Positions 2,340 through 19,709 of a stretch of DNA of 32,000 nt are shown piece after piece. Position numbers and translations under genes: made by a program. The notes under the pieces are model-generated. The model saw nothing but the letters and a program-made list of their open reading frames with translations. It was not told the origin of the DNA and searched no databases. Source of the stretch: Thermofilum adornatum (GTDB lineage Archaea > Thermoproteota > Thermoprotei > Thermofilales > Thermofilaceae); the NCBI RefSeq assembly GCF_000446015.1, contig NC_022093.1, positions 630,001-662,000 on the forward strand, in the 5' to 3' direction. Position 1 is the first letter of the stretch; every line of letters begins with the position of its first letter.

Positions 2340-3478
2340 ATTTCAATTCTTTCTCAGTTGCATCCCAATACATTGAGCAAATGTTTTCAAAGGGCAGCGG
2401 TAGAGCCTTCAATTCTTTCTAAGTTGCATCTACAGCTAATACAGGCCGCAATCGCCATCATGATAACAATCCTTCAATTTTTTCTTAGTTGCATCTAGGG
2501 TGTCAATCGATGTTATTGTTACCTCAACAAATTCAATCCTTCAATTCTTTCTAAGTTGCATCCGGAAATCCTAGAAAATTCGAGTACTTTCTTCTGAACT
2601 ACAAATCCTTCAATTCTTTCTTAGTTGCATCGCGAGTTCTTCGATGTCCCTGTCCCGCAGTGATTTCTGCATCGCCTTCAATTCTTTCTGAGTTGCATCC
2701 TCGATTATGAGGCCGAGGACAAGGGCGATCAGGAAAAAGTTCCTTCAATTCTTTCTGAGTTGCATCTTGGTATATCACGCAAGAGGACTTAGACAAGGCT
2801 CTACAATACGCCCTTCAATTCTTTCTGAGTTGCATCATATTATACCGTAAGCCAACTTTTCACATATGGAAGCATTGCCTTCAATTCTTTCTGAGTTGCA
2901 TCGGCTTGCTTGATGTCCTCTATTTCTGCCGTAATTGCTTTTAGTCCTTCAATTCTTTCTGAGTTGCATCAGCCGGGGCAGGGGAGGACCAGCCCCAAAT
3001 ATACATTATCCTTCAATTCTTTCTGAGTTGCATCACTGTATGATGGAAGAGACTATCACGGCCCCTTCCACACCTCCTTCAATTCTTTCTGAGTTGCATC
3101 TTCTACGTTGCCGACCAGGTTTCAATGGCACTTTATGGTCCTTCAATTCTTTCTGAGTTGCATCCCTCTCCAGCATCCTCGCGGTCGCAGAGACGAAGGG
3201 GACCTTCAATTCTTTCTGAGTTGCATCTCTAACACAGCTGCGCAGCTTTATTTATGAATGGATAACCTTCAATTCTTTCTGAGTTGCATCCAAGGTGTTG
3301 AAAATTATCTTGTATCCATTTATTTCTCCTTCAATTCTTTCTGAGTTGCATCTCAATGTCAGCCCTAGCATACTTAATCTGCCCATTTCCTTCAATTCTT
3401 TCTGAGTTGCATCTTACTGGCTCCGAGGTGCAAGCGAAGCTTCACACAGCTGTCCTTCAATTCTTTCTGAGTTGCATC
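2340..3478 (-). CRISPR. CRISPR array 1: 18 repeats of 25 bp, 17 spacers of 36-45 bp
   Basis: The plus-strand repeat is CCTTCAATTCTTTCTGAGTTGCATC. Repeat starts are 2340, 2406, 2471, 2538, 2607, 2675, 2742, 2812, 2878, 2946, 3010, 3076, 3140, 3203, 3266, 3328, 3389 and 3454. The minus-strand reading GATGCAACTCAGAAAGAATTGAAGG ends in ATTGAAGG, the 8-nt crRNA 5'-handle type, so the functional orientation is minus. Degenerate repeats (2340; CTAAG/CTTAG variants at 2406-2631) sit at the left, leader-distal end. Confidence 0.97.
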
Positions 3479-5649: not shown

Positions 5650-7059
5650 CTACAAGATAAAACGAAGATACTTAGGTTTCAATAATTTAATAGATTTTTT
5701 TCTACTTAATATATACGACAGTGCCGCATAAATGTATCCCTTGCCGCTGATAATGTCTTGAAGAACATTTTTATCGCTTTCAAGAGCTTTTCGATATTCC
5801 TCATAGGTTTTGAAAGTAGATACTTCGTTATAGACAAATATCATTCTCAGAAGCATATCACGTAAAGTTTTTTTAATTTTTTTCATTTGAGTTTGAGTGT
5901 ATACGTTTTTAAGAGTCTCAAGCATATATCTTCTGTATTGGTTTACAATTTTTAAAGCCTCATCGATATTATCGACTGTTAGGGACATGCTATTTAGTGA
6001 CTCCATTTTAATATCCTCAAATCTTGGAAGAATATTGTTCCATTTTTGGTCTAAGCTTTCTTTATAATTAAGTATGTCCGCAGGTGCCATTGCAATGATT
6101 GAAATTCTTTTTGAAAAAGGTCTCACAAGGAGAAGAGCTTCATAGCTGTTAGAATTACCAAAAAATATCTTAGCGTCATGTGGACAGCCTCCAATTACTT
6201 CGGAATCTCCAATTCTTAATTTTATTTGAGAGATAAACACCTTTTCTGCAATCTTCACATGAGTGATTACCGGAACAACAAAGTCGCCGGGAAAAACGTA
6301 TTGATAGTTATATCTTGGGATTGGAATTAAATATTTTGGATCCATGCTAATTTTGCCTAGTAACAGTTTTGATACAAAGTTAGGAGTTGCATAAAGCCCT
6401 TCCATTTCATCCAGGGCTGATTTGATTGATAGCCAATCTTTAGGGACACGGCTGATATTGATTTTAATCTTTCTAGACGGTCTTATTCTTAGAAAAGGTT
6501 CATAGAGGATTATCTGTTTTAAGGTGAGCTGTGCTCCGATTATTAGATTTCCAGATGTAGAGTTCAAATATTCCTGAAAATAAGATGAAGGGACACGTAT
6601 GTATACAGGTTTCTGTAGAGCCATGCTGTACAAAATTAAGTGCGCTCTATTACCTTCAAAGTATGCGTATATCCCTTTAAATTCCATTTCATTAATTTTT
6701 TTACCGCATGGGGGTATAATTTCTGCAATACCTGATTTTTCGCGTCCTTGAGAGTATTCAAGTAATTTTAGTGGGTCTTTTCTTATTTCATCGCTGATTC
6801 TCTTTTGAAATCTTACATCTTCGGCGCATTGATTATACATATCTTCCAGTATTCTTCCCATAAGTGGATGACTGCTTAGTAATTTTTTTAATCTGCGAGT
6901 CTTCTTCCATACATCTTGGTTCTCGTAACTTTCGAAAGAGTCAAGAAAAGAGAGAAATTCTCTACTATACCTCGAATACTCTCTTACGTGAATAATGATA
7001 TTATAGAGGTCTGACAAAGCAATTGCAAACGGTATTGGGTAGAAATACTCATCCAGCAT
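5650..7059 (-). CDS. Hypothetical protein (469 aa), last gene of the DISARM-like operon
   Basis: It is a long intact ORF in AT-rich DNA. Its ATG at 7059 overlaps the stop of the upstream PLD gene by 11 nt. I recognise no catalytic motif. Confidence 0.7.
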   Translation of the reverse strand: MLDEYFYPIPFAIALSDLYNIIIHVREYSRYSREFLSFLDSFESYENQDVWKKTRRLKKLLSSHPLMGRILEDMYNQCAEDVRFQKRISDEIRKDPLKLLEYSQGREKSGIAEIIPPCGKKINEMEFKGIYAYFEGNRAHLILYSMALQKPVYIRVPSSYFQEYLNSTSGNLIIGAQLTLKQIILYEPFLRIRPSRKIKINISRVPKDWLSIKSALDEMEGLYATPNFVSKLLLGKISMDPKYLIPIPRYNYQYVFPGDFVVPVITHVKIAEKVFISQIKLRIGDSEVIGGCPHDAKIFFGNSNSYEALLLVRPFSKRISIIAMAPADILNYKESLDQKWNNILPRFEDIKMESLNSMSLTVDNIDEALKIVNQYRRYMLETLKNVYTQTQMKKIKKTLRDMLLRMIFVYNEVSTFKTYEEYRKALESDKNVLQDIISGKGYIYAALSYILSRKKSIKLLKPKYLRFIL

Positions 7060-7858
7060 GTATGCTCACAGAGGGTTGTTTAGCCAGATTCCATATTTGT
7101 TGGAAAAGTCGCAATAACTGATTAACTATTTCACCTTTGAAAAGAACCGCTATATCATAATTTGACAAGAAATGGACTTCTGTCATATTGAAGCTTCCTA
7201 TCATAGCCATGTTTTCTGTTATAATCATTTTTAAATGAATGCCTCGAATTTTTGTATAAATTGTTTTTTGACCATATTTTATTAAACCATATTGACCAAT
7301 CACTTTATACTCAAGATTAGGAAAAAGAGAATTCTTTAAGCGTTGCAAACTACCTATGTTCTCTTTTTTGAATTCCGTTAATATCCTTAGATTAGGGATA
7401 TTCCGTATAAATGCTTTATAGTTTGAGAGAAGACCTGTGAAGGTTGAATCGATATAAGGCACAGCAATATTTAATTCTCTTTCAGCGCTTAATATTATTT
7501 CTCCTATGGCGTCAAAAAAGGATGGAAAACTTTCAAAAGATTTTCCTAAGTCTTCTTTTAAAGCTCCCGACAAGATAATGGATACATCAGGACTCGAAAT
7601 AAACTTTTGCATTAGGTCTTTATCCTCATTAACTGCCCAAAGGGTGGTTGTCAAAGGTCGTGTCTCATCAAAAAACTCATCTTTTACTGCCTTTACAAGT
7701 CCTATCCTTCGCAGCTCTAATAGACATTTAATTATCTGGGATATGCTAACTTCATCTGGGAATTGCTTCTTTATCTCCGGAACACTCTTGGGACTCTCCC
7801 TTAAGATTGAAAGAATTTTTTCTTTCATTTCTGGGGCGCAATTATTTTTAAACGACAT
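7049..7858 (-). CDS. wHTH-fused PLD-family (HKD) nuclease, DrmC-like
   Basis: There is a single HKD motif: IRGIHLKMIITENMAMIGSFNMT (H-x-K-x4-E-x5-GSxN). The N-terminal EKILSILRESPKSVPEIKKQF...LLELRRIGLVKAV looks like a winged helix. The ATG at 7858 is preferred; a TTG at 7882 is also open. Either start overlaps the DUF1998 gene stop (7848-7850). Confidence 0.7.
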   Translation of the reverse strand: MSFKNNCAPEMKEKILSILRESPKSVPEIKKQFPDEVSISQIIKCLLELRRIGLVKAVKDEFFDETRPLTTTLWAVNEDKDLMQKFISSPDVSIILSGALKEDLGKSFESFPSFFDAIGEIILSAERELNIAVPYIDSTFTGLLSNYKAFIRNIPNLRILTEFKKENIGSLQRLKNSLFPNLEYKVIGQYGLIKYGQKTIYTKIRGIHLKMIITENMAMIGSFNMTEVHFLSNYDIAVLFKGEIVNQLLRLFQQIWNLAKQPSVSIHAG

Positions 7859-9227
7859 AATGTGCCAACCTTTTCTTGTCAATTATAAAATTCAATGAGA
7901 AACGATTGAGAACATAGTTTAGCCACATACAGTTTGCGGAGAACAGGCACGCCTTGCATGCCAGATTGCATGAACGAGGACATTCAGTTCTCTTGCCAAC
8001 CAAGGCTATATAATCTATTTTTAGAGTATTATCCTTCTCAATTAAACTTCTTACACCACCTATGCCGCCTGGAGAATTGTCGTAGATTAGAACTTGGTAT
8101 ATGTCCCTTTCTTGATCTACTTTAATAGCTTCGCCAAATTCATGCTCACTTAAACCAGCAATAAGTGGAGCTGTTATGAGGAATAGATGCGCCAATGTAT
8201 GGGTTATTACGGTAGGGGTTGCGTCACGCGATGAAAAACCCATTTTCTGAAGACTTTCTTGAGTTTCCTTTACTTTTGATGGATCCAAATTTATAAGTAA
8301 TCCTTCTGTTTCAATTTTTCTCCCAATAACTTCAATGGCATTATCATTCCCAATAGAGACTATAGGAATGCGCTCCCTTTTTCCGGCGTAAGGAGTACCT
8401 GCCAACAGGAAAAGAGTTAACTGGTATACTTTTGCCTTGGTAAAAGCTATATCTATTATTCCTGGCATGCTTTCCTTAGGAAAATTTATTTCAATTTTAT
8501 CATTATCAAGTGTCTTAAACAGGTTGATCGAAAAAGGCTTAGTAAGGGACTCGCTTGGTGGGACAATTCTATAAATCGTGTTTTCTCTCCTGGGAGGACG
8601 GACAATTGCATATGGAACGCTAGTAGAAGAATTACCTCTCCCCTTGCCACATACATTTATCTGAGTTGAACCAAGCGGTAGCTGTAGTTTCCATGGACAT
8701 TTTGAACTTCGATTCACGTCTGGACATGCATAAATTAGCGAGCTAACAGGTCTCTCAGTACTAATTCGAACAATGCGTTTCAATACTTTGTTTTTTCTGT
8801 CAACGTCGCAGTATGCGTTAACAAATTTTGCAACAGGAATAAATAAATACTCTTCACTTCTCCTATAATAAGTAGAGAAGTTAGAAACTTGAAAATATCT
8901 ATTTGGAGGGGTTAGGAACTTAGGGGCGGCAATATAGGCCTGAATAATTTTACCCCCACAATCACACTTGAAGTTTTTGGGTACCTCATCATCTCTATAT
9001 ATTTTGCCACATTTAGAGCACCAAAAATACCTTAAAGAAATTAGGTTATTTTCTAATTCAGCTAAAACGTTTTCAGGCATTATTACTTTTACCTTTTTTC
9101 CCCTCACTTGGCGAGCTAAAAGGTCAAATACTGTGCTCAACTGGTACATCTCGCTTTTAAGTCTGTCAAGTTCTCTTGCGAGCTCATCAAGAAGACTATA
9201 ATTGATATCTTGTGACAAGACCCTCAC
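7848..9227 (-). CDS. DUF1998 (MrfA-type Zn-binding domain) protein, DrmB-like
   Basis: The C-terminal signature is LIYDNSPGGIGGV followed by the Cys cluster ECPRSCNLACKACLFSANCMWLN...LNR. The N-terminus carries a Zn ribbon, CSKCGKIYRDDEVPKNFKCDCGG. Its GTG start overlaps the helicase stop (GTGA at 9224-9227). Confidence 0.75.
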   Translation of the reverse strand: MRVLSQDINYSLLDELARELDRLKSEMYQLSTVFDLLARQVRGKKVKVIMPENVLAELENNLISLRYFWCSKCGKIYRDDEVPKNFKCDCGGKIIQAYIAAPKFLTPPNRYFQVSNFSTYYRRSEEYLFIPVAKFVNAYCDVDRKNKVLKRIVRISTERPVSSLIYACPDVNRSSKCPWKLQLPLGSTQINVCGKGRGNSSTSVPYAIVRPPRRENTIYRIVPPSESLTKPFSINLFKTLDNDKIEINFPKESMPGIIDIAFTKAKVYQLTLFLLAGTPYAGKRERIPIVSIGNDNAIEVIGRKIETEGLLINLDPSKVKETQESLQKMGFSSRDATPTVITHTLAHLFLITAPLIAGLSEHEFGEAIKVDQERDIYQVLIYDNSPGGIGGVRSLIEKDNTLKIDYIALVGKRTECPRSCNLACKACLFSANCMWLNYVLNRFSLNFIIDKKRLAHYVV

Positions 9228-11779
9228 CCATCTTCTAGAAAAGACTTTATATTTACGGTATTTCCTTCAATCATTTTCACAACGTAGAATATACCCCTAA
9301 AAGAAATGACTTGCCCCCTACTTGCTCGCCTGATTGCCGTGGACAATTCTCTCGGTCTCGTGTCAGATGCCGAGCCAAATGAGGGACTAAATTTGAATAA
9401 AACGGCTTTTTCGGCATGCCTGAGGTTGTAAATTTGATAGATGTTGTCGATTTTTTTCAAAATACTTTCGATTTTAGTAGATTTTTCGAAAGGACCTATT
9501 GACTGGCTAATGCGATCTATAGCCTCGCGCAAAGCATCTTCAAAAAGATTATTGTCTAATGACCCTATAACTCCTTGAATATGGTTTATCATCTTTAAAT
9601 GTAGCGAGTCTCTTTCGTCAAATAGAACAGCTTTAAGACGTGTTAAGACTTGATCGTCTACTGCCGACTCTTCATCATATAGTTTTCCTATGTTAATCTT
9701 CTCTGAGGCTACCGACAAATAATCAAAGATTGCCCTTGTTATTGTTCTGCGTATAGCTTCTTGATTGTTGGACTTTATTGTATAACTTTCCAAGGACATT
9801 GCATCGCTTCTTAAAGCCGGGTCGCATAGAAGTCTATAGTTTTGATAGTAATAGTAATCTATGGGTGTTTGTGGGTCAAATATAACAATAATTAACGCAT
9901 CCCTGTTCCGACCCGCCCGCCCAATACGCTGCGTGAAATCTGAAATATAAAACGGCATCCCATGAATAACAGCTACATCAAGTGAGCCATAATCTACGCC
10001 TACTTCAAGAGTCTTTGTCGCTACCAGCACCTGGTACACTTTTTTGCTGAAATCTTGCTCTATCCTTATTCTGTCTTGTTCGTAATCAGTTGTATGACCG
10101 CCTACCCTTATACCCTGTATGTTTGCAATCTCATCATTTAGCCCGCGCCATAGTTCATTACTTTCCGCTAGTGAATTGACGAAAACAATTGTTTGTGGTT
10201 TTTTCTCCTTTGCTAAATCATAAAGTTTACCTATAGCTCTTATACATGTAGCCTGCATCTCATAGGTCTTGGGCATTAGGAAAAGAAATATTCTTTGTGA
10301 TTTAACATTCACACCTTTATCGTAATTAGCTTCGAATACTTCTATTGACTTAGCATCTTCTCCAAGTAAACTAGCTGCAAACATTTTAGGACTATGAATT
10401 GTTGCGCTAGAGATAATATAGGTAGGTCTCCAATCTGGCAGTTCGTTGTGATAAGTTCTAATAGCCTGCTCAAGTCTCTTCAATAAATAATATGTTTGTA
10501 TCCCAAAACTCCCCCTTAGCATATGTGCTTCATCTAGAACAATAGCGATCGGATGACCTAGCTTCTGCATAGGTATTAGCTCTGTAGACCCACATCTGCA
10601 TTTTCTTTTTTGAACAGGATATGTTGACCCGCATTTTTTGCATACTTTAACACTAGAGTATCCTATAATGGTTAATTCGGAGGGATTGCGCATCAAGACA
10701 GCATTGATCATGTCTTGATCTGTTAACAAAATATCAGGCGGTTCGGAGTAAATTGCCTCTCTTGTTAGTTTTATCCATTTATTCACCCAATCACTATCTC
10801 TATTCACAGGGCAATCCTCATAGTCGCACGACAATTTTTCCAAGGAAAATTTTTCTTCTTGTCTTTCAAAGTAAAGTGTGAGCGGGCGTTCATGAATGGG
10901 ACATTTAATCATTGTAACTTCTGGTTTATCTTCTCCGCTGGCAAACCTGCTTTTTATATTTCCATGCAATATTCCCATTGTAATTGTAAGGTCCTCCCGT
11001 TTTTGCCTGCGTAAATAATCATTAAAGTACCAGAGCAGATGAGCCAATTCGTCGGCCTGATCATTTGCAAGTGCCTTTGTTGGATAAAATAGAATAGCTT
11101 TACAGCCCTTGTGACCTTTGGCTTTATAAATAGCTGAGGCAAAAATTAAGGGAAGCAGAAAAGCATAGGTTTTTCCGCCAGAGGTCCTCGCAACTATTGC
11201 AAAATGTCTTTTTTCAGTATTCAAACCCAGAAGTGTTAGAGATATTTTCTTCAAGGCAGCTTCCTGGTACTTATATAACTTTTTTATACCTAACTGCTCA
11301 AGGGAATATTGAAGAGCGCTACCCACTATTTCAATGTCGTCGTGCTTAACTCCCGACCGTATAAATTGTTTGGCTTCATAAATTAGATTCCTTAGAGATT
11401 CTTTTACTTCGTCTTCAGAGGCTTCAATTGAAAAAACAGGCTCTTTAGCTATATTCCAGTCTCTAAACTTAAACCTGTTTCCTTGGTCGTCTTCAGCGAG
11501 GAGACAATTTATTGGATTAATTCCCTGGAGACCAAACTTGTCCCATTTCCATTCAACATTGTATCCTTCGAAGGCAACTTCACCCTCTACTTCAAATAGG
11601 TGTCCCATTGACCATTTATAGCCATTGCTATCATAGACGTATACTGTCGGTTTTTTTCTTTCTACAATTTTGTTATTGTATTGTTTCTTGTCGAAATAGC
11701 CACCGAGGCATATGAGTAAGCTCTTTAGAAAATATGTTTCTCCATAGTTTTTCTCTCTCGTAATACTTATCCCGATCAC
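9224..11779 (-). CDS. SF2 DEAD/DEAH-box helicase with inserted Zn ribbon, DrmA-like
   Basis: Motifs are ARTSGGKTYAF (I), IVLDEAHML (II), ISSATI (III), VATKTLEVGVDYG (V) and QRIGRAGRN (VI). A CKKCGSTYPVQKRKCRCGS insert lies between the RecA lobes. About 150 aa at the N-terminus are unassigned. Its GTG start overlaps the upstream gene's stop (GTGA at 11776-11779). Confidence 0.8.
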   Translation of the reverse strand: MIGISITREKNYGETYFLKSLLICLGGYFDKKQYNNKIVERKKPTVYVYDSNGYKWSMGHLFEVEGEVAFEGYNVEWKWDKFGLQGINPINCLLAEDDQGNRFKFRDWNIAKEPVFSIEASEDEVKESLRNLIYEAKQFIRSGVKHDDIEIVGSALQYSLEQLGIKKLYKYQEAALKKISLTLLGLNTEKRHFAIVARTSGGKTYAFLLPLIFASAIYKAKGHKGCKAILFYPTKALANDQADELAHLLWYFNDYLRRQKREDLTITMGILHGNIKSRFASGEDKPEVTMIKCPIHERPLTLYFERQEEKFSLEKLSCDYEDCPVNRDSDWVNKWIKLTREAIYSEPPDILLTDQDMINAVLMRNPSELTIIGYSSVKVCKKCGSTYPVQKRKCRCGSTELIPMQKLGHPIAIVLDEAHMLRGSFGIQTYYLLKRLEQAIRTYHNELPDWRPTYIISSATIHSPKMFAASLLGEDAKSIEVFEANYDKGVNVKSQRIFLFLMPKTYEMQATCIRAIGKLYDLAKEKKPQTIVFVNSLAESNELWRGLNDEIANIQGIRVGGHTTDYEQDRIRIEQDFSKKVYQVLVATKTLEVGVDYGSLDVAVIHGMPFYISDFTQRIGRAGRNRDALIIVIFDPQTPIDYYYYQNYRLLCDPALRSDAMSLESYTIKSNNQEAIRRTITRAIFDYLSVASEKINIGKLYDEESAVDDQVLTRLKAVLFDERDSLHLKMINHIQGVIGSLDNNLFEDALREAIDRISQSIGPFEKSTKIESILKKIDNIYQIYNLRHAEKAVLFKFSPSFGSASDTRPRELSTAIRRASRGQVISFRGIFYVVKMIEGNTVNIKSFLEDG

Positions 11780-12495
11780 GGCAGCGTGATGTATTTTGTA
11801 TCTCTTGATGAAACCTGTCCATTCTTTGCAGCCGTTTTATTTATAGAAAACTTAAAATCTTTATCCTGCCTAGAGCCCAAATATTTTTCAATATCGGGAA
11901 AGCTGTCTTTTAAATCAATGAATAAATGATTGCCCTGTGAGTGCTCAAGTCTAGCATAGATCTTTGAGCCAAGAGGTAGTCCCACCGCAATATCTACTCT
12001 ATTATTGTTATTCCAAGAAATTTGCCTGCGTAAATTCTTTTGGAACACCGAATTTATATCTTTTCTATTAATTTTCACTGTGACATCGATTATATTTTCA
12101 TTAATTAACGTAAACTCAATCTTCACATCAGCAAAGTTTTCCTCAGTGTCATCTGGACAGGGCGGGGCAAGTCTAATGGCAAAACTGTAGCCTAAGTTTA
12201 CTTTTCTCTCTTTATGAGACGTAAGAGGACTTATTTTAGAAAACTCAAATCCTGTTAGGTACCATGCATGAAAAGATTTAGAAAGACCTTCGTCTTCTTC
12301 TTCAGTTTCTTCTGCTTCCTCTTCATCAACTGAAACAACTTTATTAGAATCGTCAAGGAGCTTATAGTCTTCCAAAAACTTCTCATAAAGAGCAAATGGA
12401 AGAGGACCTAAAACAGCTATATGCGGTTTTTCAGGATGCTTTCGATCTTTTAGGTATACTACTAGTTGCTCGGCTATACTTTCAAAAACATTCAT
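11776..12495 (-). CDS. Hypothetical protein (~239 aa) with acidic tract, first gene of the DISARM-like operon
   Basis: The ORF is intact, with an ATG at 12495 (a GTG at 12498 is also in frame). It contains the acidic run DEEEAEETEEEDEG. It appears translationally coupled to the helicase. No motif was recognised. Confidence 0.65.
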   Translation of the reverse strand: MNVFESIAEQLVVYLKDRKHPEKPHIAVLGPLPFALYEKFLEDYKLLDDSNKVVSVDEEEAEETEEEDEGLSKSFHAWYLTGFEFSKISPLTSHKERKVNLGYSFAIRLAPPCPDDTEENFADVKIEFTLINENIIDVTVKINRKDINSVFQKNLRRQISWNNNNRVDIAVGLPLGSKIYARLEHSQGNHLFIDLKDSFPDIEKYLGSRQDKDFKFSINKTAAKNGQVSSRDTKYITLP

Positions 12496-12518
12496 CACAG
12501 TTAATTTTTATATACTTG

Positions 12519-12532
12519 CATATAAATTTTCT
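12519..12532 (-). promoter_or_regulatory. Putative TATA box for the five-gene operon (leaderless-type spacing)
   Basis: The minus strand reads AAAATTTATA at 12530-12521, about 26-35 nt upstream of the ATG at 12495. This spacing is typical of crenarchaeal leaderless transcripts. The call rests on the sequence pattern only. Confidence 0.3.
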
Positions 12533-12846
12533 GACTCATAATATATTTGATTTTTCTATGACAGCATGTTCCACAAAAATTTATCGTTTTCAAAGTTCTC
12601 TATAAAAGTATGCCCATTTACTTTATTACGACTTCCCAATGATTAATTTTAAATGAAACGATATCATATGTTAACTTCGCCGGGGAAATTACACATGACA
12701 ACAGAAGTATCGTTTAAAGTTTACAAGAATATTCCTCCTATGAATAGAGAGAGATACGAGGTCGGAAGCAATCAGGCAATATACAATACTCTTCGAAGCG
12801 AAATAAAAGAAAAAAATGGATAGAATTGCTGAAGTTCATCGGTAAA

Positions 12847-13527
12847 ATGTATATGAACACTTCGAATTGGAAGCTAGCGCAAGAAAAATCAAAAATCCTT
12901 AGATCAGAAATCTTAAAATGGGTATATAAACACATGCGAGATTTTCCTTGGAGAAGAACAAATGATCCCTACGTAGTTCTTGTAACTGAGAAACTTCTTC
13001 AGCAAACAGACTATGGTCATGTAAAAAAAGTGTGGTATAAGTTTTTTGAGAAATTTCCTACTGTTAACGCTCTAGCACAAGCAAAAGAAGAAGAAATAGC
13101 CGAAATACTTAGACCCCTCGGCTTATGGAGACAGAGAGCGAAACAACTTAATGCCATTGCGGGTACTCTGGTGGCAAAATTTGGAGGACAAATTCCATGC
13201 AGCTACAAGGAGCTACTATCACTTCCCGGCGTAGGAGACTACATTGCAAGAGCCACCTTAGTGTTTGCTTGCGAGATTCCTACTTACCTAATCGATGTTA
13301 ATACCAAGAAAATCGTTCAGAGATTTATCTTCTATCCCACTCAGGTGACTGAAAAAGAAGTAGCCAAGGTATTAGAGATTGCAACACCAAAAAGTCCAAG
13401 AGAATGTAAACTTTTCAACTGGGGAATGATAGACTTTTCCGCGCTTGTCTGCACAAAAAAACCTAAGTGTGATATATGTCCTCTCAGGGAAAATTGCGCC
13501 TATTATTCTTACACAATTATTGGCTAG
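12847..13527 (+). CDS. HhH-GPD DNA glycosylase of the EndoIII/MutY/Mig family with 4Fe-4S cluster loop
   Basis: Motifs are FPWRRTNDPYVVLVTEKLLQQT, the HhH LLSLPGVGDYIARA, IDVNTKKIVQRF and the C-terminal Cys cluster CTKKPKCDICPLRENC. The ORF is open from a TTG at 12826; the ATG at 12847 is preferred. Its 3' end overlaps the convergent C5-MTase 3' end by 11 nt. Confidence 0.8.
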   Translation: MYMNTSNWKLAQEKSKILRSEILKWVYKHMRDFPWRRTNDPYVVLVTEKLLQQTDYGHVKKVWYKFFEKFPTVNALAQAKEEEIAEILRPLGLWRQRAKQLNAIAGTLVAKFGGQIPCSYKELLSLPGVGDYIARATLVFACEIPTYLIDVNTKKIVQRFIFYPTQVTEKEVAKVLEIATPKSPRECKLFNWGMIDFSALVCTKKPKCDICPLRENCAYYSYTIIG

Positions 13528-14749
13528 GTGGAATCCTTGCTTCTACAAGAGACTTTAGCACAGCTTCAGCCACCCTTTTTGCTAGCAAGGGTGGCACTGC
13601 GTCTCCTATTAGAGCATATTTATCGACAACATTTCCAATGAATTTATATCCATCCGGGAAAGTTTGTATCCTGGCACATTCCCATACACTTAATCTTCTC
13701 GGCTTCTTATCTGAGTTGTTTTCAAACTCCCATTTATCTTTCCCTACATGAATCATTCTAGGCGAGTCTGGATGCAGTGGTATGTGCCTAGCGCTTGCAA
13801 GTATAATATAGCTAGGCTCATCCCACGATTTGTACCTATTCCTGGACATGTAGATAGGCGAAAAGTTGCCCTCATAAACCTCATCTCCTACTCTCTTCTC
13901 AAATGGAGGTAAATCTCCAATTGCATCTCTCAAAGTCCTATATTTCTCAATAACCTTTCCACCTGCACTCATGAATGGCTTTGGAGCATGGGTAGGTTCT
14001 GGGAATCTTATAGTTATCCCTAAACTTCTTTTAGCGCCAATGAAAATTACCCTTTCTCTTTCTTGAGGAACACCGTAATCCAAGGCATTTAATATTTTCC
14101 ACTCAACATCATAACCGATCCTGTCAAAAGCTTGCTTTATGGCTTCCACAGCCGTTACCAAGTAATTTTTCACATACTCGACGAGTTTTTTTTGATAAGG
14201 ATCCAAAATATTATTTTCTCTAATTATATACTGGGGGGCTGCCCGCCTTTTCCTACCTACACTTTGAAGATCAAGCAACTTATTTAAAGCTTCAAGAACT
14301 CTTCTTTTTTCATCCTCGTCTATGTCTTCTCGAATGGTAAGCATGGTCAATATTCCTTTAACGTTCTCCATTACAAAAACGTAAGGCTGAAGCCTTGCCA
14401 CCACTTCCACATAGTCATAGAAAAGCTTAGCTCTGGGATCACTTGGATCGCGCTTGCCAGCTAAGCTGAACGCCTCACACGGCGGACCACCAATAATAAC
14501 GTCTACACGTCCTCCAGTCAAGCTGTAAAGTTTCTCCTTAACAGACCTATCTCTAATATCGCCGCAGATAACCTCAACTTCGGGGTGATTTGCCTTATAG
14601 GTTTCGCATGCCCTTTTCCAAATGTCTACAGCAGCTAAGACCTTAAACCCATAGCCCTGGTACTCAGCTTGCTTGAATCCCAAAGTCAACCCGCCAGCAC
14701 CGCAAAAGAGGTCCACCAAGGTATAGTACCTCATTTTCGCAACCCTCAC
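13517..14749 (-). CDS. dcm: DNA (cytosine-5) methyltransferase
   Basis: C5-MTase motifs appear in canonical order: DLFCGAGG (I), GGPPCEAFS (IV), ENV (VI), QERERVIFIG (VIII) and IGDAVPP (X). Confidence 0.92.
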   Translation of the reverse strand: MRVAKMRYYTLVDLFCGAGGLTLGFKQAEYQGYGFKVLAAVDIWKRACETYKANHPEVEVICGDIRDRSVKEKLYSLTGGRVDVIIGGPPCEAFSLAGKRDPSDPRAKLFYDYVEVVARLQPYVFVMENVKGILTMLTIREDIDEDEKRRVLEALNKLLDLQSVGRKRRAAPQYIIRENNILDPYQKKLVEYVKNYLVTAVEAIKQAFDRIGYDVEWKILNALDYGVPQERERVIFIGAKRSLGITIRFPEPTHAPKPFMSAGGKVIEKYRTLRDAIGDLPPFEKRVGDEVYEGNFSPIYMSRNRYKSWDEPSYIILASARHIPLHPDSPRMIHVGKDKWEFENNSDKKPRRLSVWECARIQTFPDGYKFIGNVVDKYALIGDAVPPLLAKRVAEAVLKSLVEARIPPSQ

Positions 14750-16370: not shown

Positions 16371-16568
16371 TACCTTTCAACAGTATTAGTTTAAAGGATG
16401 ATCCTAAAAAGATAACCACAGGGATAATATTTGTAAGATAAAAGTATTACATTTGTGCCATCCCTAGCACATGTTCAAAACGCCTAACACAACTGACTGC
16501 ACCGCGCACCAAACACGGAACACACATACCTGACACTCATCGAAGCTCATCCAGAACAAAACAAAGAA

Positions 16569-17262
16569 GCAACAATTCTTTCTAAGTTGAACCAGGATAA
16601 ACAGGCATGGATACAGCTATAGGTTCCTCAGGTCACCTTACGCACTTTCAATTCTTTCTGAGTTGCATCAACAATTTCCGATTCATGCAACATTTAATGG
16701 ATACACCTTTCCTTCAATTCTTTCTGAGTTGCATCTGGCAACAATTAGAGAGATGGACAAGGCTGTTTCTAGAGGCCTTCAATTCTTTCTGAGTTGCATC
16801 TAAAAGGCTTCTGGCTCGGGGTGGCCGAGGGCCTGGCCCTCCTTCAATTCTTTCTGAGTTGCATCCCTAAGCGCCTTGGTCTCTATGGTCTGGGTTATCT
16901 TCGACCCTTCAATTCTTTCTGAGTTGCATCCGATATCGCTGACGCCTTGACGCTGAGGTTAGCGAAGAACCTTCAATTCTTTCTGAGTTGCATCCCGCGC
17001 AATAGGCATCGACCTAGAAAACGAGGGATACTCAAACCTTCAATTCTTTCTGAGTTGCATCTAAGCTGAGCGGTCTGGGCCGAGCCGAGAAGGTTACCCT
17101 GATCCTTCAATTCTTTCTGAGCCGCATCCTGGTCAGAGGGCGTTGACCTACCCGCCGACGCGGTGCTAGTAGCCTTTCAATTCTTTCTTAGTTGCATCAC
17201 AGTCCAGTTGCTCGGGAGCACCCCGCAGCTCGTTGCTCTTTCAATTCTTTCTTAGTTGCATC
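16569..17262 (-). CRISPR. CRISPR array 2: 11 repeats (same family as array 1), 10 spacers
   Basis: Repeat starts are 16569 (degenerate), 16645, 16711, 16776, 16841, 16906, 16970, 17037, 17104 (GAGCCGCATC variant), 17174 and 17238. The two leader-proximal repeats share the variant CTTTCAATTCTTTCTTAGTTGCATC. The leader lies on the right, so the functional strand is minus. Confidence 0.96.
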
Positions 17263-17506
17263 CGAGTTGTTTTACCGAGGAGGGGTTTATATGTTTAACG
17301 CTTTTTCCTGCAAGAAGCCAGCAAAACTGCCCTAGCACTCAAATTTACACATTGGAGGCTTCTGAAACTTCCCAATTGGGAAGCTTCTCGAAATACCCCG
17401 TTTTGGGTCGGGAAGTTTTCCCGTAATCTCTTTTCAAAATAACCTTCCCGTCGAGAAACTTCATAAACACCTTTTAGTCTTCCTTTAAGGAAAACATTGA
17501 CAAAAA
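17263..17506 (-). promoter_or_regulatory. CRISPR leader 2 (~244 bp)
   Basis: It is collinear with and highly similar to leader 1 (3479-3724), including the TTTATATG block about 25-30 nt from the first repeat. Confidence 0.8.
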
Positions 17507-17589
17507 GCGGCGTGCGTTTGCCATAAAAGGTGGTCGCAGTGAAGATTTTCCCTTTTTCCATGTTTTATGTATTCGGTAACTTTCTCTCG

Positions 17590-18250
17590 AGTCTGGCCGC
17601 TCGAGCCCGCACACGTGGGCGTGTGACCAGCGGCACTCGTCTCGGGCCCCCTGGGCAACATGCACCCCTCGGGGCCAAGTGTACACGCCGAGCACGAGGG
17701 ATGACCCCCAAGAGTAGTATGCTCGGCGTGGGTAGGGGGGACGCCTATGGCTAGGGGTGGGACCCGCAGAGGGCCGAGTAGCCTACAGTATGCAAGCCCG
17801 TCCGCCAAAAAACAAGTCTTTTTTTCTGGCCCCTTTCCACTTTTTCTTCCCCCCTTTCCCCGATCCGCCCCCACCCTCATATGGGTGGCGCCCCCACGAT
17901 AGGGGGCGGCTTCGATGCCTGGCCGTGTATGGGGGACCCTGCACGGCTTGGGCGATGAGGGTCGCGCCTCGCCACGGGAGACCCTGGCAGGCGCGGCTAG
18001 GGGAAGGGGGAAAGGGGCCAGCCAACGACAACCACTAACAGCCATAAACCACACAACCATACATCGCTTAACAAAGAATCTATGACATACATGAACCCAC
18101 GAAACCCACACTTCCTCTTATCCACCATTATTCGCTACCTCTCCTAACACGCAAAGAAGTGCCCGTCCCGCCGGTTCCCTGGGGCCTAGCGTGATCCATG
18201 CCTCCGCGCCCTAGCAGGGCGCCCCCGGAGCCAGGGATCCGGGGTGAGAG
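17590..18250. ncRNA. GC-rich, hairpin-dense region without credible ORFs; candidate structured RNA(s) of unknown class
   Basis: Many perfect local stems are visible: CTCGAG..CTCGAG (17587-17606), CACACG-TGGG-CGTGTG, GGCCCC..GGGGCC, GCCGAGCA..TGCTCGGC, CCGCCCCC..GGGGGCGG, CTGGCCCCTTTCC (17826) paired with GGAAAGGGGCCAG (18010), and GCGCCC-TAGCA-GGGCGC. A TATA-like TTTTATGT at 17563-17570 precedes the region, and a T7 run lies at 17817-17823. No rRNA, SRP or RNase P signature was recognised by eye. Confidence 0.3.
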
Positions 18251-18253
18251 GCT

Positions 18254-19528
18254 ATGGACATGGGGACGGCTAGCCCCGAGGGCTGGCGGACGGACCCCAC
18301 CGACCTCCTAGCAGAACTATACACCAGAGCCCAGCTAGCAAACAGGGAACTACACAGCCTAGTAAACGGACAGAAAAAATACTTCTACGAGTCGACTGAG
18401 ACCCTCATACACGGGCTAGGTCTCCCAGCAGACAAGGCAGACACATTGCGAGGCTTCACAGAAACACTAGCCAGCCTACTAGACATGGCATACCCGCAAG
18501 CAGAGACAAAGCTACAGAAACTATTGAAAGCCCTAGAAAACAGCAACGTCAAGGTAGAGCTGGGACCACGTGCCAAAAAGACGCTACACGTCATGCCAGA
18601 AGGGGAAAGGTGGTATGTCAGTGCACAGCTACGCAGAAAAACATGGCTATTCAAACTGCCAATCTACAGGGTGAGCGCCGACGCCGAGTTCCCAGAAATA
18701 CTAAACCTCTCCAGCCAGGACTTATACTACTTACAGGCAGGATGGCGAGCTAGCGATGAAAGTTGCGATCAGAACGAACCCCGAATGGGGACGACACAGC
18801 CATGGCAAGTACTTGCATGGGCAGTCGCGCGCTACGGCTATCTTCGGATATACCTCAGTTCTTTAAACCTAAACATGACTGAGCCAACATTCGCTTGGAC
18901 CATAACAAGCAAAAGCTGGGAACAACAGTGGCCCACCCGTGAAGGCAAAAAACAGGCACAGCAAGTAGCTAGCCAACACCCGCTCGGCATGCTGGCATGG
19001 TACCTCGGCGACGGCAGGAGACACAAATACGACCTAAGGTACAAAATTGGAAACGAAGAAAAATACGAGCCAAAAGACCTGGCACAGCAAATCCTGCAAG
19101 CCGCGTACCAGACAGGCTACGGAAAACTGCTAGACCTCCTAGAAAGCGAAAAATGGACAGCAATAAAACGACTACAGCCAAAACAGCACCCAGTATACGC
19201 AACCCTACAAGGCCACATCTTCTGGCTAAACTACTACGACGACAAACAAGTCCTACAGGCACGAGCCCTATTCAAAGACCCAGCCCAGGCACACAGACTG
19301 GCAAAAGCCCTAGCAGAAAACGGCATACAGGCACGGATAAACACGTGGAAAACCGGCTACCACATACTACAAATAACGGGACAAAACATACTAAAACTGG
19401 CGGAAAACAGCCCAGAATGGCGCATGGCATTAAAGCAACTGGCAGAAAAACACGGCCTACAGCCAAAAACACCAATGCTACGCAGGCTACTCGAGCTCGC
19501 GGAAAACCCACCCCAGCCAGAAACGTAA
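18254..19528 (+). CDS. Hypothetical protein (424 aa) with degenerate LAGLIDADG-like motifs
   Basis: This is the only long ORF here with non-repetitive composition. LAWYLGDGRRHKYDLRYKIG resembles a LAGLIDADG motif followed by a beta strand. YLQAGWRASDES could be a degenerate first motif. The assignment is weak. Confidence 0.55.
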   Translation: MDMGTASPEGWRTDPTDLLAELYTRAQLANRELHSLVNGQKKYFYESTETLIHGLGLPADKADTLRGFTETLASLLDMAYPQAETKLQKLLKALENSNVKVELGPRAKKTLHVMPEGERWYVSAQLRRKTWLFKLPIYRVSADAEFPEILNLSSQDLYYLQAGWRASDESCDQNEPRMGTTQPWQVLAWAVARYGYLRIYLSSLNLNMTEPTFAWTITSKSWEQQWPTREGKKQAQQVASQHPLGMLAWYLGDGRRHKYDLRYKIGNEEKYEPKDLAQQILQAAYQTGYGKLLDLLESEKWTAIKRLQPKQHPVYATLQGHIFWLNYYDDKQVLQARALFKDPAQAHRLAKALAENGIQARINTWKTGYHILQITGQNILKLAENSPEWRMALKQLAEKHGLQPKTPMLRRLLELAENPPQPET

Positions 19529-19535
19529 TTAGGAG

Positions 19536-19709
19536 GGGGCGTCACCCATTATACACCCATTTGAACCACCGTCCTCGGGGTTATGACTCGGGCCCACGCC
19601 ACAGGGCGCGGGTGCCCCGCGGGATACCTGGCTTCCCCACCGCGCGCTCGAGAGGGAAGCTGAATACCTTGGTCGCGCGGGGTGGACTTTCAGGGCGGGG
19701 TGACGCCCC
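19536..19709. ncRNA. Candidate structured RNA closed by a perfect 12-bp stem
   Basis: GGGGCGTCACCC (19536-19547) is perfectly complementary to GGGTGACGCCCC (19698-19709). Internal hairpins are CGCGGG-TGCC-CCGCG and CCGCGCG..CGCGCGG. The element is GC-rich in an intergenic position between convergent genes. Class and strand are unknown. Confidence 0.3.

Follow-up and report, generated by a model that had tools for sequence, protein, structure and literature searches.

The window analysed here is a stretch of 32,000 nucleotides (nt) of the Thermofilum adornatum genome (NC_022093.1, positions 630,001 to 662,000). Between the leader of a clustered regularly interspaced short palindromic repeats (CRISPR) array and an open reading frame (ORF) of 424 amino acids (aa), it contains a region at 17523-18253 that is G+C-rich, non-coding and dense in hairpins, as had been observed in an earlier note based on the letters alone. 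As judged from sequence comparisons, the best explanation is that this region would be the 5' portion of a single plus-strand transcription unit with a length of about 1.95 kilobases (kb; approximately 17590 to 19520). Its RNA, with a predicted structured part of about 650 nt, belongs to a family that the searches described below indicate to be uncatalogued. It is probably the structured RNA of a selfish, intron-like LAGLIDADG unit that controls its own expression. The parts of the unit, together with the neighbouring CRISPR leader, are the following.

17263 to 17506, minus strand: leader of CRISPR array 2, given for context and lying outside the element; the array (16560-17262) is transcribed leftward.
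17523 to 17570, plus strand: promoter-like region with the A/T boxes ATAAAAGG (17524-17531) and TTTTATGT (17563-17570), conserved in type-A loci, the subfamily of the window's copy.
17596 to 17634, plus strand: hairpin H1, with outer stem GCCGCT/AGCGGC, inner stem GCCCGC/GTGGGC and an asymmetric CGA / GYGTGA internal loop resembling a kink-turn (K-turn).
17644 to 17676, plus strand: hairpin H2, with a GGCCCC/GGGGCC stem.
17684 to 17730, plus strand: hairpin H3, with an 11-bp stem and the loop motif GGGAUGAC.
17748 to 17767, plus strand: 5' strand of a long-range helix, TGGCT-A-GGGGTGGG followed by CCGC, with its partner at 19499-19519.
17754 to 17797, plus strand: most conserved block of the RNA leader, GGGGTGGG..CCGCAGAGGGCCGAGTAGCCT, kept where other leader sequence has diverged.
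17807 to 17825, plus strand: A6 run, loop and T7 run, a candidate A:U hairpin and/or attenuator.
17826 to 18021, plus strand: closed multi-helix domain, in which a pyrimidine tract faces a purine tract around three or four internal hairpins, including a GAUGAGG motif.
18022 to 18159, plus strand: A/C-rich variable linker, poorly conserved and missing in copy B and many loci.
18206 to 18211 and 18217 to 18222, plus strand: hairpin P-a, GCGCCC / GGGCGC.
18223 to 18229 and 18238 to 18244, plus strand: hairpin P-b, CCCCGGA / TCCGGGG.
18241 to 18248, plus strand: Shine-Dalgarno (SD) site GGGGTGAG, overlapping the 3' arm of P-b and lying 6 nt before the ATG.
18254 to 19528, plus strand: ORF of 424 aa, predicted to form an N-terminal helical hairpin and then a two-domain LAGLIDADG-like fold.
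19499 to 19519, plus strand: 3' strand of the long-range helix, GCGG-AAAA-CCCACCCC-AGCCA, at the right end of the unit.

The G+C content is 0.64 in the 300-nt intervals 17600-17899 and 17750-18049, compared with 0.43-0.50 in the flanking CRISPR array and CRISPR leader and 0.465 across the 1.75-Mb genome. Inside the GC-rich region, the minus strand has an ORF of 208 aa and the plus strand one of 93 aa; both are of low complexity and neither is conserved, in agreement with the earlier judgement that no credible ORF is present. Most indels among type-A homologues are of 1 nt, 94 of the 102 have a length not divisible by three, and substitutions occur without three-base periodicity (176/138/187). 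These data contradict a decayed protein-coding gene, an alternative for which a check had been proposed, and a Pfam search of the 208-aa ORF returned no match.

The CRISPR leader homology common to about ten arrays of the genome, whose repeat ends in ATTGAAAG in its reverse complement, extends to 17482-17506 when the locus is compared with its own genome by BLAST, so the region does adjoin the CRISPR leader, as first described. It is not part of it. An extended CRISPR leader was rejected, as the homology stops at 17482-17506 in nine of the ten other arrays. In the type-A subfamily, one fixed junction with the distal end of the CRISPR leader recurs in about 16 loci, probably because a transfer RNA (tRNA) gene often comes next after the CRISPR arrays of this genome. 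That recurrent junction, together with the open 208-aa frame, is what could be said for a dead gene or a prolonged leader. Nevertheless, nine other leaders of the genome lack the region, and no CRISPR array lies near copies B and C or most non-type-A loci. With the indel and codon data added, either explanation is barely credible.

The GC-rich region is the front part of a repeated unit of about 2 kb (approximately 17560-19519) that is present in three genome copies, each with the ORF (406-432 aa). Copy A is the one in the window (17523-19514; 424 aa). Copy B (genome 677015-678747; 406 aa) is 90% identical over 17523-18022 and lacks 18022-18159, and one TAA breaks its full-length protein match. 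Copy C (genome 852763-851002, minus strand; 432 aa) is 77% identical from window position 17755 on. The upstream RNA region also occurs in about 35 metagenome loci and the unit in dozens; in L055, L058 and L064, identity to the window is 86-90% for the upstream DNA and only 50-57% for the proteins. The right end of the unit is sharp (19514-19519), with inter-copy similarity ceasing at 19513-19515 in nearly all loci. The 3' strand of the long-range helix lies at this same end, and the final 35 nt are 90-97% identical even among distant members. The earlier note had considered the structured ends of a mobile or viral remnant. Of this, membership of a mobile element was broadly right, given a multi-copy unit of RNA and LAGLIDADG-like ORF. 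The three genome copies with intact or nearly intact ORFs are at odds with a remnant, and a viral origin found no DNA or protein match among 50,697 phage and virus records, in a search that did not extend to the plasmid collection.

The array that departs from the others (at about 432.5 kb) has a piece of the unit beyond its leader. At genome 432142-432250, the CRISPR leader is followed by only the first approximately 100 nt of a type-A unit, up to GACCGCTCGAGCCCGCAG, and then by a tRNA promoter and tRNA gene; the same tRNA lies behind a complete unit in L045. The piece looks like a solo remnant left by a deletion between the similar sequences CTCGAGCCCGC (H1) and CTCGAGCTCGCGG (3' end of the unit).

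Searches for known RNA families were negative. Over the whole window, only one tRNA passes the Rfam gathering thresholds, and a search of 17200-18400 up to E = 10 returned the CRISPR repeat and chance-level long non-coding RNA models only. The unmatched classes include ribosomal RNA (rRNA), signal recognition particle RNA, RNase P RNA, group I and II introns, HEARO, C/D and H/ACA small RNAs (sRNAs) and riboswitches. ARAGORN detected no tRNA or transfer-messenger RNA in the GC-rich region, and no description of the present RNA was found in the literature on PaREP2, Thermofilum LAGLIDADG or Thermofilum structured RNA. The proposal of an unclassified structured RNA is thus upheld. A scan for bacterial promoters and terminators was set aside as not applicable to archaea.

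Conservation and covariation, which the earlier note had named as a check, are both observed: the homologous loci conserve the region, and compensatory changes in their alignments support four features, namely H3, the 17826-18021 domain, P-b and the long-range helix. RNAalifold gave a poor consensus on the mixed subfamily alignment because MAFFT misaligned the subfamilies, and per-helix alignments were used instead; row C_L016 of alignment A2, whose coordinates were wrong, was left out. The minimum free energy of 17824-18026 lies far below that of dinucleotide shuffles (z = -6.5 on the plus strand, -5.9 on the minus strand). That of 17590-17826 on the plus strand, folded as a single sequence, is not better than its shuffles (z = +0.66); its hairpins are conserved and covarying. 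In H2, GGCCCC/GGGGCC is replaced by GGCGCC/GGCGCC and the inner GGG/CCC by GAG/CTC in L037, L039 and L045, and alignment pair 101-128 is CG in 14 sequences and GC in three. In H3, 99.4% of cells are paired among 33 distinct, related sequences, six of the ten pairs carry compensatory double changes, and one pair is seen as A-U, G-C, U-A and C-G; none of 500 shuffles matches this, and slid registers pair 32-51% of cells. The base of the H3 stem has GA dinucleotides on both strands in most subfamilies, which is K-turn-like although no clear C stem flanks it, and this type-A copy has GUGUA / GGUAGGG in their place.

A covariance model built from the H3 rows (R1) has exactly three matches in its own genome, which are the three copies, and matches in 6 of 22 other Thermofilaceae genomes. 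In the congeneric genome G004, three of the four R1 matches lie about 1 kb upstream of protein matches among those listed, and in each of the four G004 loci that were read through, a family-like ORF comes next, in one case with a frameshift. Wherever genomes were examined, the RNA motif occurs together with the ORF family, except for one hit in the congeneric genome G005 (L120, 1377510-1377583, minus strand). There, the H3 motif matches at E = 2e-12, the protein query finds nothing in the genome, and G+C-rich structured sequence with an unrelated-looking ORF comes next; L120 may be a decayed or very divergent unit.

Downstream of H3, the domain at 17826-18021 contains the stem CTGGCCCCTTTCC, which starts at 17826 as had been reported, and its partner GGAAAGGGGCCAG, which is indeed present and starts at 18009, one position before the coordinate first given. 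RNAalifold predicts 36 pairs in this domain, seven of them with double changes, and G:U pairs are conserved; both strands of its closing helix are lost together in L039, L061 and L087. Before the ORF, P-a, P-b and the SD site (18206-18248) are near-invariant among 37 loci. Elsewhere, P-b reads CCCCTCC/GGAGGGG, CCCACCC/GGGTGGG, CCCGCCC/GGGCGGG or CCCGGGC/GCCCGGG, with at least six stem sequences in all; when distant paralogues are included, the full 7-bp stem forms in 51 of 58 instances, compared with 1-4 at shifted registers. The long-range helix joins 17748-17761 to 19507-19519, within the last ORF codons, by 13 bp across strands about 1.75 kb apart, and an extra segment pairs CCGC (17764-17767) with GCGG (19499-19502). 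The layout is thus 5 bp, a 1-nt bulge, 8 bp, a 2/4-nt internal loop and 4 bp. Its central U-A pair becomes C-G in L075, L082 and L060, and L072, the sister of L075, retains U-A; the extension of the helix reads GGCUA/UAGCC, GGGGA/UCCCC or GGAGG/CCUCC according to lineage. Leader and 3' end form more stable duplexes with their cognate partner than when re-paired (7 of 5000 permutations; p ~0.001). The pairing of the leader with the 3' end would place the whole ORF in a closed loop.

These results bear on the possibility of independent small RNAs that merely neighbour the ORF, one of about 230 nt (17596-17825) ended by the T7 run and a second at 17826-18021. A T run is the usual archaeal termination signal, and a T5-T9 run is conserved in every subfamily; the run in the window is real, although it occupies 17819-17825 and not 17817-17823 as first placed. 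The TATA-like box TTTTATGT was correctly located at 17563-17570 and is properly positioned, 26 nt ahead of the first hairpin (17596-17634), and 17826-18021 is a self-contained closed domain. However, no promoter-like A/T box precedes 17826, the covarying pairing of 17748-17767 with 19499-19519 needs a single molecule, the hairpin that overlaps the SD site covaries, and the motif accompanies the ORF family with the single G005 exception noted above. The A and T runs also lengthen together in L055, which suggests that they pair with each other. The separate RNA of about 230 nt proposed in the earlier note is not supported, given the leader/ORF-end pairing and the SD hairpin, both of which covary, and independent small RNAs are improbable. 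The same two features indicate that at least part of the transcripts would run through the ORF.

The order of parts is retained well beyond the close relatives. Divergent loci whose intervening sequence has changed keep the TATA-like box, H1, H2 and H3, the block GGGGTGGG..CCGCAGAG.GCCG.GTAGCC, the A run with its T5-T9 run, a long G+C-rich multi-hairpin domain and two hairpins directly before the SD site. Every subfamily has an A run with T5-T9 behind it, and in L055 both runs are longer. The architecture of H1 recurs with other stem sequence in L050-type loci and G004 paralogues. In the latter, at 25-30% protein identity, the parts stand in the same order ahead of the ORF. Three divergent subfamilies have the TATA-like box at 25-35 nt ahead of H1, or of H3 where H1 and H2 are absent; the A/T boxes are a putative promoter.

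The ORF itself reached no family in Pfam and NCBIfam searches, and the proteins related to it are hypothetical ones from Thermofilum and hot-spring metagenomes; G004 has at least 20 distant paralogues. According to a confident AlphaFold (AF2) model (predicted local distance difference test score, pLDDT, 86), the protein would have a long helical hairpin at its N terminus, a beta-sheet and two domains of alpha-beta-beta-alpha-beta-beta-alpha topology (154-239 and 243-355). The fold-search lists are filled by LAGLIDADG enzymes and WhiA (VIA-align Z 6-7.9), and the top Foldseek match is the archaeal intron enzyme I-Tsp061I (E = 7.7e-4). In each domain the first helix ends in a motif, AGWRASDE in the one and LAWYLGDG in the other; in the family, the forms GWRASDE and LxxYLGDG are invariant, as are D168 and D253. 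Weak matches to Pfam LAGLIDADG_3 occur in 12 of 37 members, only above E = 0.008, and weak matches to PaRep2b (PF07775) in 3 of 37 (best E = 5e-5), none of them the window protein. Membership of PF07775 was rejected, since the window protein falls below any Pfam threshold. According to the model, the ORF product looks like a two-domain LAGLIDADG-like protein distantly related to PaREP2b. In Pyrobaculum, PaREP2b genes have been described as putative transposons (PMC3558965).

Unit ends often lie close to tRNA genes. A co-oriented tRNA gene follows 28 of the 65 distinct unit ends that have enough flank, at a distance of 35-105 nt, and at least 12 different tRNA types are found in this position; copy B precedes tRNA-His and copy C precedes tRNA-Pro. 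Directly downstream of copy A lies an element of 174 nt (19536-19709) that is not a tRNA gene. It is G+C-rich, closed by a 12-bp stem and conserved in L033, L037, L046, L061 and L109; an Rfam search of it gave no family, and RNase P RNA was rejected, as that of the genome lies elsewhere (548819-549116). It may be another RNA gene. In the lineage to which copy A belongs, the unit has a CRISPR leader on one side and this putative RNA gene on the other.

A downstream flank in common with copy A marks several of the type-A junction loci as orthologous sites. Three of these sites (L058, L064 and L087) have the same leader and downstream flank and ORFs only 50-57% identical. Shared flanks around strongly different ORFs suggest an exchange of ORFs between conserved ends. 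Some orthologous sites have 0.4-1.2 kb of extra DNA behind the ORF, and L034, L060 and L106 carry two unit ends in tandem. Taken together, the extra DNA, tandem ends and differing ORFs suggest cassette-like exchange or tandem insertion.

In another explanation, the hairpins would act as DNA, either as transposon-like ends and recognition sites or as the border of a recombination cassette, the RNA folds being incidental. Apart from the apparent swapping of ORFs between conserved flanks, this explanation can point to the description of PaREP2b relatives as putative transposons (PMC3558965), to similar palindrome-containing sequences at the two unit ends (GCTCGAGCCCGC in H1 and ACTCGAGCTCGCGG at the 3' end) and to the piece at 432142-432250, with its appearance of a deletion between such ends. 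However, the structure extends over about 650 nt and is not confined to the termini, G:U pairs are conserved within helices, a hairpin falls exactly on the SD site, terminal inverted repeats are absent, and Pfam and NCBIfam reveal no transposase-type domain. A purely DNA-level role is therefore very improbable.

The structured RNA of a selfish, intron-like LAGLIDADG unit thus probably accounts for the locus, and this interpretation is built on the conservation of the region, the covariation of four helices, the number of copies, the link to the ORF family and the nearness of tRNA genes. As energies do not separate the strands, the plus strand was chosen on the basis of the promoter-like boxes, the hairpin at the SD site, the long-range helix and the G:U pairs. 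In the mechanism proposed, the fold would act in cis on the expression of the element: the P-b hairpin would mask the SD site and so control translation, and the U run may attenuate transcription. The closing helix, together with L7Ae bound at the K-turn-like motifs, could keep the RNA stable and protected at high temperature and mark where it ends. The role of the LAGLIDADG protein may be to bind this RNA in the manner of a maturase and/or to cut DNA at insertion sites.

Several points weigh against this interpretation. The fold searches gave the protein matches of only middling strength (Z below 8), and consensus folding energies are near a tie between strands (-152 kcal/mol on plus, -149 kcal/mol on minus; similar elsewhere). 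The H3 rows were chosen not blindly but with a filter for stems of 9 bp or more, with about one chance hairpin expected against the 33 found, and the sequences are related and not independent, so that the shuffle statistics overstate significance. An empty-site search of congeneric genomes with the 6-kb loci of copies B and C as queries found only tRNA-sized and scattered matches, and it was uninformative because the flanks are too diverged. The transcript start just before H1, its end and the read-through of the T7 run are presumed from sequence features, and nuclease activity, RNA binding, L7Ae binding and mobility are proposals of the same kind. Lastly, a purely cis-regulatory role is unusually modest for about 650 nt of conserved structure.

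An alternative is that the RNA is more than regulatory and is a functional partner of the protein or is itself catalytic, either as a new intron- or ribozyme-like element with a looped-out ORF or as a ribonucleoprotein that aids insertion before tRNA genes. The large structure is conserved across paralogues with 25-30% protein identity, and a covarying long-range helix encloses the ORF, as in ORF-bearing introns. The RNA remains 85-95% identical while the ORF falls to 50%, which indicates that the RNA is under strong constraint of its own, and the units consistently end before different tRNA genes. LAGLIDADG proteins include RNA maturases, and two of these, bI3 and I-AniI, are among the fold matches. 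Set against this, no group I, group II or other ribozyme model of Rfam matches up to E = 10, no host gene is interrupted, conserved exon-like flanks are absent, and the closing helix is not of the bulge-helix-bulge type. A group I intron was rejected, with no RF00028 match up to E = 10 and flanks that consist of the CRISPR leader and an intergenic or tRNA promoter region. An archaeal bulge-helix-bulge intron was likewise rejected, as the boundary helix lacks the hBHBh' arrangement (two 3-nt bulges, 4 bp apart), relaxed variants of which were not searched exhaustively. On balance, a partner or catalytic RNA is possible but unlikely. Its boldest form would be a new class of archaeal selfish element, in which a K-turn-rich RNA of about 650 nt with the LAGLIDADG gene looped would, jointly with its protein, process itself or direct insertion immediately upstream of tRNA (and other RNA) genes, and this too is offered tentatively.

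Beyond the unit, the window shows two further features. The unit lies inside a defence island (62-2300, 2340-3478 and 5650-14749). Besides cas3' and cas3'' genes, this island has a second CRISPR array that shares the repeat, a DISARM-like cluster (helicase/DUF1998/PLD) and a C5 DNA methyltransferase accompanied by an HhH-GPD glycosylase. Between 18040 and 24000, the strand composition switches strongly, the AT skew being about +0.5 across the ORF but about -0.6 from 19.7 kb onward, which points to genes on both strands with A/C-rich sense strands.

To our knowledge, few structured RNAs of unknown function are both large and conserved, and Thermoproteia have yielded almost none of them. The one described here would combine about 650 nt, several helices backed by covariation and K-turn-like motifs with base-pairing to a homing-endonuclease-like gene. 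The unit may explain the nature of the long-puzzling PaREP2-type repeat genes, and it appears to let a LAGLIDADG gene persist outside introns and inteins. Its position suggests that the promoter-proximal side of tRNA genes is preferred as a target, a preference otherwise known from eukaryotic retrotransposons. If RNA-assisted, such LAGLIDADG mobility would be a mechanism without described precedent. For annotation, such blocks next to CRISPR leaders should not be labelled as leader, and the family deserves an RNA model of its own.

Among known systems, HEARO or omega-RNA with IscB (OMEGA, RF02033) shares the arrangement of a large conserved RNA directly upstream of, and co-oriented with, a nuclease or nuclease-like gene in a multi-copy, mobile-type unit. 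However, no Rfam match links the two, the present protein is LAGLIDADG-like without RuvC or HNH, no guide segment is evident, and the RNA described here has an additional pairing with the 3' end of the ORF. The K-turn RNAs to which L7Ae binds (box C/D and H/ACA sRNAs and archaeal RNase P RNA) are resembled in the RUGAUGA-like and GUGA-like boxes of H3 in most subfamilies, with further GAUGA / GUGA motifs in H1 and the 17826-18021 domain; they differ in that the would-be guide segments here pair together, no CUGA D box is present and no C/D or H/ACA model of Rfam matches. PaREP2b of Pyrobaculum (PF07775) is, like the present ORF, a repetitive and poorly understood gene family of Thermoproteia, and no published description of a structured RNA or of tRNA-proximal placement associated with it was found. 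The last comparison is with ORF-bearing introns, both group I and the bulge-helix-bulge rRNA introns of Thermoproteales (e.g. that of I-Tsp061I, PDB 2dch). The unit differs from them in interrupting no host gene and in lacking conserved exon flanks, being intergenic and placed before tRNA genes, and its protein is twice as long, with an N-terminal coiled-coil-like hairpin. In common with them, a LAGLIDADG-type ORF is looped out by pairing between the 5' and 3' parts of the RNA, in a unit that is multi-copy, selfish-looking and at home in hyperthermophilic Thermoproteia.

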